Below, in pieces: positions 53,128-56,226 of a stretch of 64,000 nucleotides of DNA. Source of the stretch: Escherichia phage vB_EcoM_YN3. A program made the position numbers and the translations under genes. The notes beneath the pieces are model-generated. The model was given only the letters and a program-made list of their open reading frames with translations, was not told where the DNA came from and did not search any database. Where the stretch lies: sequence record PV763136.1; one strand, written 5' to 3'. Each line of letters starts with the position of its first letter. Position 1 is the stretch's first letter.

Positions 53128-54174
53128 TTAAGCATAAGATATAGTGATCCATTGACCATTTACAAATTTTTGAATGGCTCCAGTCCAATAGTCGCCCTGA
53201 TACGGGTGTTTATAGGCGTAATTGCCGGAGCACATTACATGCCCAGGGTATACTCTTGATTCTCTGTAGGTGGTTCTGAAACGGTTTGCTATCCTTACAT
53301 CTTCAACACCCCTACTAGGCATAGGAATAGTAAGGTTACCACTACTGTCTGCGCTACTACCATTTACCCTGCGGACCACGTTTCTTCCACCAACTGTTGC
53401 ATATTGACCCCTGGCGGTTTTATCGTTACAATCTACTCTTCCGCCTATTTGAGCGCTGCCGCAGGATTGTTGTCCATTAACAGTGGCTCTAGGTATCGTT
53501 ACCGCATTAGCATTTGCAGAGGAACTTTTTGCATCGTTGCATTCAAGATTTCCTTGGATAGCCAGTCTTGCACGGTTGGCAGTTATAGCATTGAGCTTCA
53601 TAGCCGAAAACACAGGCTGCCCACCAGAAGGTTGAAATCTCCAACGGAACCCATCTATTTGGTGAGAAGGATCATCAAGGTCTGTGCCGTCAGCACCACC
53701 GATGTTGTCCATAATCCAGAAGTCCATCGTCGTCTTGTCTGGAGTTATGGTAGTATATATTGCCGCATTGTCTGTTGACGCAGATGCAAACTCGATTCTT
53801 TGGAGACCTAAAGTTTGAGTCTGAGTCATTATGTCTCCAGACTTGTCAACATATAGATCGTCCATTTCTTCAGGCGAGTATACATTGAGAACTTGACGTG
53901 CAGCAGCTTTGTCTGGAACGTCTGCTAGATTATTAGTGACCCTTAAGAATCTATTATCCCATCCTGGGACAACATCTTCTGTTAAATGCTTCAACCACGC
54001 AGAAAGCATGTGAAGTTCAAAGTTAACAACTTCACATGCCATTCTTTGTGTCATATCCCAACCTTTCAATCTCTCTTCTTTTTTTGGTTGAGATTTATTC
54101 AACTCTCCCGTATTTTCAAGCACAACATCCTGATTGGCCCAAATATCAAGAGGGATAACTGGTTTAGTCATCAC
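53128..54174 (-). CDS. Tail fiber protein, paralog 2 (348 aa)
   Basis: Shares N-terminus (KPxxPLxIWA), PDKTTxDF, RWRFQP, LNAITANRA and C-terminal QKxVNGQWITxxYA with 55186..56226. Confidence 0.65.
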   Translation of the reverse strand: MMTKPVIPLDIWANQDVVLENTGELNKSQPKKEERLKGWDMTQRMACEVVNFELHMLSAWLKHLTEDVVPGWDNRFLRVTNNLADVPDKAAARQVLNVYSPEEMDDLYVDKSGDIMTQTQTLGLQRIEFASASTDNAAIYTTITPDKTTMDFWIMDNIGGADGTDLDDPSHQIDGFRWRFQPSGGQPVFSAMKLNAITANRARLAIQGNLECNDAKSSSANANAVTIPRATVNGQQSCGSAQIGGRVDCNDKTARGQYATVGGRNVVRRVNGSSADSSGNLTIPMPSRGVEDVRIANRFRTTYRESRVYPGHVMCSGNYAYKHPYQGDYWTGAIQKFVNGQWITISYA

Positions 54175-54260
54175 GTTCTCCTGAGAAAATTCCTTAGAAC
54201 TATTTTAACACTTTAGAGAACAAAATGCAAGAACGGAGTCCTTTCCGTTCTGACCTTTGT

Positions 54261-54575
54261 TTACCTTTTACTATGCTCTACAAGCATGTGCAAAATCTTT
54301 TGTACATCAGCTCTGATGCCGGAAACATCTGTCCTGACATCCTGCTTAAGGTCGTTAATATCGGCCTCTAGCTTGCTTAACCGGGTCTCGATAACGGAAT
54401 CAAGTTTATCTTTTGTAACCATACTGTTTTTCACTAAGATGAGGTCTTTCTCCAGTTCATCCAGCCTCTTGGAAATGCCTTTCCATTTGGTGTGCCACTG
54501 GTTGAAAGCCCATACACAGATCGGGACAACGGTACCCATGCAGATACCGTACAATGCCGCCAAATCCAACTCCAC
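54261..54575 (-). CDS. Small protein with N-terminal TM helix and coiled-coil tail (104 aa)
   Basis: LAALYGICMGTVVPICVWAF followed by charged heptad-like region. Confidence 0.45.
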   Translation of the reverse strand: MELDLAALYGICMGTVVPICVWAFNQWHTKWKGISKRLDELEKDLILVKNSMVTKDKLDSVIETRLSKLEADINDLKQDVRTDVSGIRADVQKILHMLVEHSKR

Positions 54576-54586
54576 AACACCTCCTC

Positions 54587-55171
54587 TTAGAGGGTAGGTC
54601 GCTCCGGGAAGAAAATGTCAGGGGCTTTAGATGTATCTATTTCAAGAAGTTTTACCCTGTACATTTTCAAATCCCTGATGTTACGTTTCTGGTCATCAGT
54701 AAGATCATATTCAAGGTCAATCATGTCTTGATAGGCACCAATTCTAGCAGTAGCCCAAGCAAGTTCTGTCTCTATGACACCCTCTGCCTGTTGAACAAAG
54801 AATTCATTATCTGTGACAAATTCATCACCAACTAAACGCAAAGCGTCGTGGTGAAGCATAATGTTTTCTGGTACCTCTTCTTTTTTGGCGATAACCACAC
54901 GAAGACCTGGAGCAGGCCATAAGGCATCAGGTTCTTCTGTAGATGTCTTAAGAATTCCCTTCTCGTCAACAAGTAGGAAGATACAACCCGGATTTTCTTG
55001 TCGTAATGTTCGTGACTGCACATACCAATCGCCATCATCATTACGTAAAAAATACCCAGTGTATGCGGTGTAATCCTCAACCTCTTGAGGGGTCAGCTCT
55101 TTGGTTTCCTTGTTGGCGTGGTATTCGCCAGATCCCGGTTGGTAAAGTTTAAACTCTTGAAGTATTTTCAT
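54587..55171 (-). CDS. Tail fiber assembly protein (Tfa-like chaperone)
   Basis: C-terminus MYRVKLLEIDTSKAPDIFFPERP matches the conserved Tfa pattern (YRV.LxxVDTSxAPDIxWP), recalled from lambda/enterobacterial Tfa. Confidence 0.65.
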   Translation of the reverse strand: MKILQEFKLYQPGSGEYHANKETKELTPQEVEDYTAYTGYFLRNDDGDWYVQSRTLRQENPGCIFLLVDEKGILKTSTEEPDALWPAPGLRVVIAKKEEVPENIMLHHDALRLVGDEFVTDNEFFVQQAEGVIETELAWATARIGAYQDMIDLEYDLTDDQKRNIRDLKMYRVKLLEIDTSKAPDIFFPERPTL

Positions 55172-55185
55172 GCTAGTCCTCCGAT

Positions 55186-56226
55186 CTATGCATAATTAAC
55201 AGTGATCCATTGACCATTTACAAGTTTTTGTAAAGGTCCTGCCCAGTAGGTTGAACCACGCATCTCTTTTTTGTCACCGAAATGCCAGCCTGTGACAACG
55301 TAGCCGTTGCGAATTGGAGATTCAGAAACGCCGTCAACAAGTCTTGCACCGATTCTGATGTCTTGCACACCTGTCTGCGGGATAGTGATCGTTACATCAC
55401 CGTTACCGTTAGCCGTCACTCCGTTCACAGAGCGAACCACATTTCTGTTACCGACAACACAGTGCTGACTTCTTACAACCATGCTGTCACAACTTGCACC
55501 ACCATTAACATATACTGACCCGGCCGTCAACTGACTAGCCACATTACAGTTGGTGAATGTTGCTGTATTGCTGATAGTAAGGTTATTGCACCTCATGTTA
55601 TCGACAACTTCAACATTGCCTACCACTTTCAACAGCGCACGGTTCGCCGTGATCGCGTTAAGGTACATCAAAGTGAACTCTGGATTAATATCCGGCTGAG
55701 TTGGCTGGAATCTCCAACGAAACGCATCTACTGTAGATGTACCACCATCATCAAACGACCCAATATTATCACTTAACCCGAAGTCGAGAGTTGTCTTATC
55801 TGGGCCAATAGTTGTCTCTATCCAAGCCTTATCTGTCTCGGCAGCTTTAAAGTTGATACGTTGCAAACCCAACGGGCCTGTCATTGTATCACCTGTAACT
55901 TTTACATACCTGGCGTCTGCCTCTTCCTTGGTAATAATCCCAAGGTTTCTACGGGCAACAGGGATGTTCAAAAGATCACTCAAGTTATTATCACGTACCA
56001 GATAACGGCCTTCTTGAGCGGGGATCTGCTCGTCAGCAATGTATTTTGCCCAAGTTCCGAGCATATTGAAAATATAGTTAAGTTCTTCACATGAGGGCTT
56101 TTGACCAAGATCCCAACCTTTTCTCCACAAATCATCAATCGGGCGTAGCCTGTTCTGTCTGTGGGTGTTAGGCAGAACCTGATCCTCCTCTGCCCAAATC
56201 TCTAATGGAAAACTAGGTTTTGACAT
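55186..56226 (-). CDS. Tail fiber protein, paralog 1 (346 aa)
   Basis: See paralog 2; followed by Tfa-like gene. Confidence 0.65.
   Translation of the reverse strand: MSKPSFPLEIWAEEDQVLPNTHRQNRLRPIDDLWRKGWDLGQKPSCEELNYIFNMLGTWAKYIADEQIPAQEGRYLVRDNNLSDLLNIPVARRNLGIITKEEADARYVKVTGDTMTGPLGLQRINFKAAETDKAWIETTIGPDKTTLDFGLSDNIGSFDDGGTSTVDAFRWRFQPTQPDINPEFTLMYLNAITANRALLKVVGNVEVVDNMRCNNLTISNTATFTNCNVASQLTAGSVYVNGGASCDSMVVRSQHCVVGNRNVVRSVNGVTANGNGDVTITIPQTGVQDIRIGARLVDGVSESPIRNGYVVTGWHFGDKKEMRGSTYWAGPLQKLVNGQWITVNYA

Follow-up and report, generated by a model that had tools for sequence, protein, structure and literature searches.

Two short tail fibre paralogs and a single assembly chaperone gene in the tail module of the rV5-like Escherichia phage vB_EcoM_YN3

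The stretch of DNA analysed here (64,000 nucleotides, nt, of record PV763136.1, Escherichia phage vB_EcoM_YN3, hereafter the window) belongs to an rV5-like Escherichia coli phage of the genus Vequintavirus. It contains a module in which two related short tail fibre genes, indicated as A and B, lie on either side of a gene for a tail-fibre-assembly (Tfa) chaperone. The region is 97-99% identical in nucleotide sequence to more than 110 phage records, nearly all of them from rV5-like Escherichia phages of this genus. The module is the known rV5-type short-tail-fibre locus, already published since 2013: its genes are named gp33, gp32, gp31 and gp30 in rV5, and the annotation of the BASEL phage JohannBauhin reports two copies of 'short tail fiber protein' and a 'tail fiber chaperone'. 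The elements of the module are listed below; lengths of proteins are in amino acids (aa), and ORF stands for open reading frame.

55186-56226, minus strand: short tail fibre paralog A, 346 aa, ortholog of rV5 gp33, matching phrog_4465
54587-55171, minus strand: Tfa chaperone, 194 aa, rV5 gp32, matching PF02413 Caudo_TAP
54261-54575, minus strand: 104-aa ORF, rV5 gp31, matching phrog_5345, with a hydrophobic N-terminal segment and a coiled coil
54175-54260: non-coding gap of 86 nt before paralog B
54230-54251, minus strand: terminator-like hairpin, RNA fold -17.5 kcal/mol, z = -3.6
54202-54230, minus strand: promoter-like element for B (TTGCAT, 17 nt, TGtTAAAAT), placed after the hairpin
53128-54171, minus strand: short tail fibre paralog B, 347 aa from ATG, ortholog of rV5 gp30, matching phrog_4465

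All genes in this part of the window lie on the minus strand, and those around the fibre pair follow each other at distances of 9-14 nt, the 86 nt ahead of paralog B being the sole exception. In a previous reading, based on the letters alone, lengths of 346 and 348 aa had been assigned to the two fibres. The first value stands, while the second comes from a mechanical ORF opened at a GTG. The likely start of B is the ATG at position 54171: the AGGAG of a good ribosome-binding site lies 6 nt upstream of it, against 3 nt for the GTG located one codon earlier; the annotated length of rV5 gp30 is likewise 347 aa.

A and B can be aligned from end to end with 43% identity (E 2e-95), far beyond chance, and both match phrog_4465 'tail fiber protein' over their full length (A 1-346, E 9e-172; B 2-348, E 2e-165). 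This bears out the presence of two complete, co-oriented fibre paralogs, as read from the minus-strand ORFs 55186-56226 and 53128-54174. The distribution of the similarity is the reverse of what the sequence-only reading had described, namely shared ends and a divergent centre. Identity in 30-residue windows peaks centrally, at residues ~106-210 (43-70%), and is low at 46-90 (27-30%), 211-255 (23%) and 301-345 (27-30%); towards the ends, good conservation is limited to the first ~30 residues (50%) and the last ~14. The conserved tip is real, the two proteins ending in ...LQKLVNGQWITVNYA and ...IQKFVNGQWITISYA, and its likeness to P2 H, pointed out in the previous reading, is supported: the motif P[ILV]QK.[IV]NG.W..V of the tip is found also in Mu S, Mu S' and P2 H. 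The original observation was confirmed in part.

Homology to the S and U genes of phage Mu, whose alternative S'/U' set is chosen by inversion of the G segment, would suggest that A and B are alternative fibres, selected by DNA inversion of the Mu/P1 type or by another switch. The layout of the locus contradicts this: the genes lie on the same strand, each complete and with its own N-terminus. Within 52000-57000 the longest inverted repeat is of 24 nt at 71%, and none flanks an invertible segment; no invertase is annotated in the matching 27.5-kb stretch of phage JohannBauhin. The sole notable direct repeat is the 63-nt common 3' end of A and B, with 79% identity. An inversion switch is refuted by the sequence and switching of any kind is given practically no credit; the earlier view that both fibres are carried together, rather than exchanged by an invertible switch, was correct.

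In a phmmer comparison with the PDB, A aligned through its residues 1-108 with the N-terminus of the phiTE short tail fibre (9cuy_c, E 1.4e-19), and B, less strongly, through its residues 2-84 with the same region (E 1.9e-8). In phiTE, residues 3-92 of this fibre make up a trimeric joint that is attached to wedge protein 1, as seen by cryo-electron microscopy, and the long and short fibres touch (PMC11972413). In phi92, six trimers of gp147 ('fibre III') are located under the wedge and have been proposed to mediate irreversible binding (PMC13450770). At the opposite end, the A tip (residues 286-343) matches Mu S (5yvq_A, E 1.7e-6, in the PDB-wide phmmer search), with pairwise identities of 36% over 61 aa to Mu S, 46% over 35 aa to Mu S' and 28% over 64 aa to the C-terminus of P2 H; the B tip has a weak pairwise similarity to Mu S (28% over 67 aa, E 0.011), together with the terminal motif in common. 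Foldseek searches were run with monomer AlphaFold models of low confidence (mean pLDDT, the per-residue confidence score, 62 for A and 59 for B), used for a coarse fold match only. For both paralogs the sole PDB match at E <= 0.001 was 5yvq_A, the Mu S-chaperone complex (A, E 3.8e-7; B, E 1.7e-6; probability 1.00), with low TM-scores, the chains being extended. No Pfam family was found for either fibre.

A similarity of the short fibres to T4 gp12 (1PDI) was reported by Kropinski 2013 (PMC3606486) on the basis of HHpred, which is more sensitive than the searches used here; in these, no gp12 chain was detected by phmmer against the PDB at E <= 1, nor among the best 50 Foldseek rows for each model. 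'Short tail fibre' is thus a functional label rather than demonstrated gp12 homology.

Sequences resembling the A tip (residues 287-344; 55186-55368), with 57-59% identity, also occur at the fibre C-termini of ~52-kb Salmonella and Escherichia phages and of one 'Listeria phage' record. Phages with such a tip (BP63, yarpen, brorfarstad, JEP7) have nothing else in common with the window, which points to an exchange of the tip module between unrelated phages.

The N-terminal anchor distinguishes B from the rest of the family. The signature RPI(D/N)DLW.KG(W/Y)D.G(Q/E)KP..E..NY is found in nearly all family members, including A, Av-05 and Seunavirus. An exhaustive protein search, over 1.84 billion cluster representatives, detected 17 proteins at E <= 1e-30, and 16 of the top 20 rows could be retrieved; a word-indexed protein search with B had produced five matches only. 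Among these 16 rows, only the clusters of the rV5-type B and of the B found in L006, a diverged lineage described below, replace the signature with (E/Q)LNK.QP.K(E/D)..GWD..QR.A.E..NFE. The family residues D32, L33, K36 and P44 are conserved at 90% or more, and the exceptions, checked by eye, are B copies, which lack these near-invariant anchor residues. B-type anchors are 54-80% identical among themselves, and 35-39% identical to A-type anchors. An anchor that is changed yet conserved suggests a changed docking interface for B. By homology, the docking partner of the family-typical anchor would be the product of the rV5 gp35 homolog, a wedge 1 protein encoded upstream of A.

The position of B is informative about the origin of the pair. 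In relatives with a single short fibre (Av-05, Seunavirus GAP31, a Salmonella relative and a metagenomic contig) the gene order is fibre, Tfa, 104-aa protein, 157-aa polytopic membrane protein, 87-89-aa membrane protein and a fibre of ~585-600 aa. B occupies the exact position of the 157-aa gene (window 53128-54260, compared with 6949-7422 in L002, 6961-7434 in L004 and 6958-7431 in L014, three of the relatives). This gene, annotated PF26221 Phage_phiTE_239, overlaps the 104-aa gene by 4 nt in the relatives, and no homolog or remnant of it was found anywhere in the 64-kb window. B is 40-44% identical to everything, A is 51% identical to Av-05, and B evolves about twice as fast as A. As to the timing of the event relative to the split of Av-05 and Seunavirus, this distance and this rate are equally compatible with an old duplication, a recent duplication followed by acceleration and a horizontal acquisition.

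Two further observations concern the single-fibre relatives. Their trio of membrane proteins (104, 157 and 88 aa) sits inside the tail-fibre cluster. One record, L003 (PQ002170.1, Salmonella phage vB_Sen_SG_WM_RUS_R7), has a taxonomy line reading Demerecviridae; its fibre module has the gene order and gene sizes of Seunavirus GAP31, and the short tail fibres of the two are 71% identical.

Searches by tblastn found both paralogs in essentially all of ~115 Vequintavirus records, with an intact B ORF. Two diverged lineages, L009 and L006, represented by metagenome or read-archive assemblies, keep the order A, Tfa, 104-aa ORF, B. Their identities to the window are as follows.

L009: A 87%, B 77%, Tfa 78%
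L006: A 73%, B 48%, Tfa 46%

At least 16 GenBank records named 'Campylobacter phage' (MG0656xx, e.g. MG065662.1 and MG065672.1), most with C. jejuni as host, are ~97.7% identical to the region and carry both fibre paralogs; their host labels look doubtful.

Among the window, rV5 and JohannBauhin, A shows 12-16 synonymous and 2 non-synonymous differences, with a ratio of non-synonymous to synonymous substitution rates (dN/dS) of 0.03-0.05, and B 22-46 synonymous and 4-10 non-synonymous differences (dN/dS 0.05-0.06). With respect to rV5, A is 99.7% identical to gp33 in aa sequence, and B is 97% identical to gp30 (46 synonymous and 10 non-synonymous differences, dN/dS 0.05). These values are comparable to those of adjoining structural genes, and both fibre genes are under strong purifying selection (dN/dS ~0.03-0.06).

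The signals in the gap ahead of B were compared across lineages. At the position of the hairpin, alignment by eye shows a self-complementary stretch of other sequence in L009, the case of L006 being less clear. The promoter-like element is reported, with exactly the same sequence, in Table S4 of Kropinski 2013 (PMC3606486) as putative late promoter P030, with a sibling, P036, upstream of gp36. A generic sigma-70 scan misses it, its -35 box matching at only 3 of 6 positions; it was recognised by eye, in the 2013 supplement and by its conservation across lineages. In the alignment of the gap, TTGCATTTT and TAAAATA are invariant at fixed spacing in the window, rV5, L009 and L006, with diverging flanks. 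The motif TGKTAAAATA is present in three copies in the window, of which two precede B (54201-54210) and the wedge gene (60532-60541), respectively. The third, an exact copy of the late-promoter-like motif (TGTTAAAATA), is located at 5812-5821 on the minus strand, far from the tail module. Downstream of a 581-aa fibre gene, which follows B, the terminator CCGCTCCTGACGGGGCGGTTTTCTTAT corresponds to rV5 t028. The likely transcription units would be one from P036 through gp31, and one in which P030 drives B, an 88-aa membrane protein and the 581-aa fibre.

The terminator-like hairpin just upstream of the gene, and the lack of gp30 among 18 of the 19 entries of the rV5 virion table discussed below, could indicate that a duplication left B as a remnant, either non-functional or not expressed. 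Such an outcome is very improbable. The reading frame is intact in ~115 genomes, dN/dS against rV5 is 0.05, the ribosome-binding site is accompanied by a promoter element conserved across diverged lineages, and the gene is retained in both L009 and L006. On these sequence features the remnant reading is strongly disfavoured, and B is not to be regarded as a decaying copy.

The gene between the paralogs had been identified as that of a chaperone from the sequence alone; this was right, although the 104-aa ORF in the same interval (54261-54575) had been missed. Its Tfa-type identity is supported by a PF02413 Caudo_TAP score of 45.8 bits, above the Pfam gathering cut-off of 22.1, residues 121-192 covering positions 60-130 of the 131 of the profile. 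The protein also matches phrog_136 (E 2e-36) and is 23% identical to Mu U' over 160 aa; phmmer against the PDB gave chance matches only. In Tfa proteins a variable N-terminal domain grips the fibre tip and a conserved C-terminal domain drives trimerisation (PMC9608196), a modular model which the variable N-terminal and conserved C-terminal halves of the present protein fit. It is encoded by the only Tfa gene in the fibre module, starting 14 nt past the stop of A. The 104-aa ORF (phrog_5345, E 1e-48) is 100% identical in aa sequence in the window, rV5 and Bas53, with synonymous changes only, and has homologs at the same position in Av-05 and GAP31; by this conservation, it qualifies as a conserved member of the module.

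The distal tips of the two fibres behave differently in different lineages. In the rV5-clade B tip, SGNYAYKHPYQGDYWTGAIQK stands in for the family-wide motif TGW.FG(D/N)KKE(L/M)RG; in rV5 and L009 the longer motif TGW.FG(D/N)KKE(L/M)RG..Y is replaced by SGNYAYKHPYQGDYW. With 89% conservation between the window and L009, the tip is the best-conserved part of B, which is consistent with a binding surface that differs from that of A and is maintained. In L006 the A and B tips (last ~60 residues) are 84% identical and end identically (...YWAAPLQKLVNGQWITVQTL), and the B tip is 34% identical to that of the window. Nucleotide identity in this part of L006 is 65-83%, which points to an older exchange, or for selection for the same protein sequence, rather than for a fresh conversion. 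With one Tfa gene for two fibres, both the matching of the L006 tips and the invariance of the last residues of the window's fibres fit a shared chaperone, and a single Tfa may well serve both fibres.

Similar lengths, a central block with 43-70% identity, identical last residues and one chaperone might also be explained by co-assembly of A and B into heterotrimers, that is, by one fibre species made from two genes. Several indels would break the register of a trimeric shaft (+2 near residue 116, +4 near 162, -2 near 185, and others), the anchors differ (35-39% identity), B has a promoter-like element of its own, and the homologous fibres of phiTE, phi92 and Mu are homotrimers; heterotrimers are accordingly considered improbable.

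The interpretation preferred here, held with moderate confidence, is that of a short-tail-fibre module of an rV5-like phage in which A sits on wedge 1 and B is a derived, functional copy, both being fibres directed to the core of the lipopolysaccharide (LPS) and displayed together, with no switching. To judge from its homology with phiTE and phi92, A, which keeps the family-wide anchor, would be mounted on wedge protein 1 in the form of six trimers. B would be a derived copy kept functional, whose conserved promoter probably drives its transcription along with that of the genes for the 88-aa membrane protein and the 581-aa fibre; in B the anchor to the baseplate would have changed and, in the rV5 clade, the distal tip as well. 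Both would be Mu-S-type fibres, whose tips probably fold with the help of the only Tfa, that encoded after A. Most likely, virions would carry two kinds of short, LPS-core-directed fibres at once, which could extend irreversible adsorption to more E. coli core types or make it stronger. In keeping with a target in the LPS core, LL12, a close relative, needs the outer-core glucose I of the LPS (PMC7229145). The analysis itself shows homology, intact genes, purifying selection, a conserved promoter-like element, divergence of anchor and tip, and the lack of an inversion system; from these we infer co-assembly of the two in one virion, a separate docking site for B, sharing of the chaperone and different ligands.

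Part of this is contained in the literature. The paralogs, their Mu S/U ancestry and the idea of two LPS chemotypes are described by Kropinski 2013 and Maffei 2021 (PMC3606486, PMC8594841). In the former, gp30 and gp33 were reported to be 42.3% identical and the hypothesis of two LPS chemotypes was proposed (PMC3606486); in the latter, fibres and chaperone were described as homologs of Mu GpS/GpU and of the one short fibre that phi92-like phages possess (PMC8594841). A literature search found no paper separating the roles of the two paralogs and no Vequintavirus baseplate structure. Dual receptor specificity, raised also in the sequence-only reading and equivalent to the hypothesis of 2013, is a plausible and reasonable hypothesis for the rV5 clade, as yet unproven.

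A number of observations weigh against the preferred interpretation. Maffei 2021 (PMC8594841) reported no considerable allelic variation and a uniform dependence on the LPS core, and put forward one shared secondary receptor. K-12 can no longer be infected once waaG alone is lost (PMC8594841, PMC7229145), so that on this host the two fibres are not independent alternative routes. The near identity of the two tips in L006 implies that a difference in tips is not a universal reason for having two copies. Every fibre gene of Mu, P2 or lambda is directly followed by its own chaperone gene, but B is not: the 88-aa membrane protein is encoded in that place. The low confidence of the structure models of A and B is a further point of this kind.

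Virion proteomics belongs to the same series. In the main text on rV5, gp30, gp32 and gp33 are listed as detected (PMC3606486). None of the three is found among 18 of the 19 proteins of the corresponding mass spectrometry table (PMC3606486, Additional file 5, Table S5), these 18 entries being 61, 60, 53, 52, 133, 79, 152, 82, 34, 237, 41, 62, 235, 106, 37, 1, 27 and 228; judging from the main text, the nineteenth would be gp64. Similarly, a search for six peptides expected from A, B and Tfa gave no match in the part of the rV5 mass spectrometry supplement covered. As far as these entries go, virion evidence for both paralogs is weaker than the 2013 text suggests. A 'proteomics' paper on O177 phages was also evaluated as a source of virion evidence and discarded, being computational only.

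In a rival explanation, both fibres bind the same LPS-core receptor and the second copy is kept for a structural role: it might increase avidity and the number of fibres, e.g. from six to twelve, or take up another site, such as one touching the gp28 long fibre. In its favour, L006 keeps both paralogs and the B-specific anchor although the tips are 84% identical; all tested Vequintavirinae have the same LPS dependence and little allelic variation (PMC8594841); and the putative transcription unit of B also includes the gene for the homolog of the phiTE long tail fibre, a fibre which in phiTE touches the short one. The B tip of rV5 and L009 is hard to reconcile with it, differing from A at family-wide motifs and being itself 89% conserved, as expected of a maintained new function rather than of drift. 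A common receptor is rated as rather unlikely, if worth serious consideration. A more specific version of the preferred interpretation can be offered only tentatively: B may be a re-anchored fibre at a second baseplate site, possibly touching gp28, so that the virion would bear two geometrically distinct sets of Mu-S-type fibres, with tips either matched to the shared chaperone, as in L006, or, in the rV5 clade, with a B tip diverged towards a second LPS-core chemotype.

The genes adjoining the module, on either side, are the following.

59009-60499, minus strand: wedge 2 homolog, 496 aa, Baseplate_J-type, PDB wedge 2 match at E 3e-158
58311-58997, minus strand: wedge 1 homolog, 228 aa, rV5 gp35, matching PDB 9mjn_dh 'Wedge 1 protein' (E 2e-66) and Phi92_gp146 (E 5e-23)
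56239-58311, minus strand: 690-aa protein with Calx-beta, NCTSP_N and NCTSP TIM-barrel ('non-contractile tail sheath') domains, E 2e-79
52850-53116, minus strand: 88-aa membrane protein, rV5 gp29, directly downstream of B, phrog_1322 at E 3e-32
51095-52840, minus strand: 581-aa fibre, rV5 gp28, PDB 9cuy_g 'putative tail fiber protein' at E 6e-77
45410-51046, minus strand: 1878-aa fibre

Transcription proceeds in the order wedge 2, wedge 1, 690-aa gene, A, Tfa, 104-aa ORF and B. The 690-aa gene lies between wedge 1 and paralog A, as in Av-05, with paralog B displaced further; the 690-aa gene is absent from the Seunavirus and phi92-like loci inspected. Its product also matches PDB 9lc0_M 'Gp64' (E 3e-24), and the BASEL annotation calls it a fibre and gives it glycosidase and deacetylase domains. 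In a 2026 preprint, binding of the N4-glycan receptor is attributed to a Vequintavirus tail-fibre protein with a poly-N-acetylglucosamine deacetylase domain, which is probably this 690-aa protein at 56239-58311. Downstream of B, the 88-aa membrane protein is 100% identical in aa sequence in three Vequintavirus genomes, and 51-52% identical to the proteins located at the same position in Av-05 and GAP31. The 581-aa protein is a homolog of the phiTE long tail fibre (9cuy_g), its orthologs being annotated PF26208/PF26209 (Phage_phiTE_241).

For the wedge proteins, naming or stoichiometry seems to be swapped in one of two sources on phi92: in PMC13450770 the wedge is composed of one gp145 and two gp146, while among the chains of PDB 21vq Phi92_gp145 (495 aa) matches the two-copy wedge 2 of phiTE and Phi92_gp146 (209 aa) the single-copy wedge 1.

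Four features appear to add to the published descriptions, refining a known system: the derived anchor of B, its own conserved promoter, the presence of B in place of the membrane-protein gene, and the matching of tips in a lineage-specific manner. Phages of the rV5 type belong to the coliphages that are isolated most frequently, and are candidate agents of therapy and biocontrol. For predicting and engineering their host range it matters which protein contacts the LPS core irreversibly, and whether the presence of two paralogs extends this contact to more core types. The B anchor, the B promoter, and tips that are matched or diverged according to lineage offer concrete handles for experiments.

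Known systems resemble the locus to different extents. With T4 gp12 the proposed analogy is functional, consisting in LPS-core binding for irreversible adsorption, and sequence or fold homology is absent in the searches described above. The Mu S/U, Mu S'/U' and P2 H/G pairs are closer, with a Mu-S-like fold along most of the fibre, the C-terminal tip motif and a PF02413 chaperone, found here directly after A. They differ in having another N-terminal anchor and one chaperone per fibre, as opposed to one chaperone gene for two fibres; sequence identity is confined to ~60 tip residues (28-36% for A to Mu S and P2 H, 28% for B to Mu S), and the window, unlike Mu, has no invertible segment.

The fibres of phiTE (gp236), phi92 (gp147), Av-05 and Seunavirus belong to the same anchor family and occupy the same place after the wedge genes, followed, as in the window, by Tfa and an ORF of the 104-aa type and, in Av-05 and Seunavirus, also by one of the 88-aa type. 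All of these phages have one copy of the short fibre, against two in the window, and the phiTE fibre further differs in its coiled coil and immunoglobulin-like distal part, thought to bind flagella. The closest system is rV5 itself, with 99.7% (A) and 97% (B) protein identity, the same gene order and the same P030 promoter sequence; nothing substantive separates it from the window, whose B allele differs at 10 residues.

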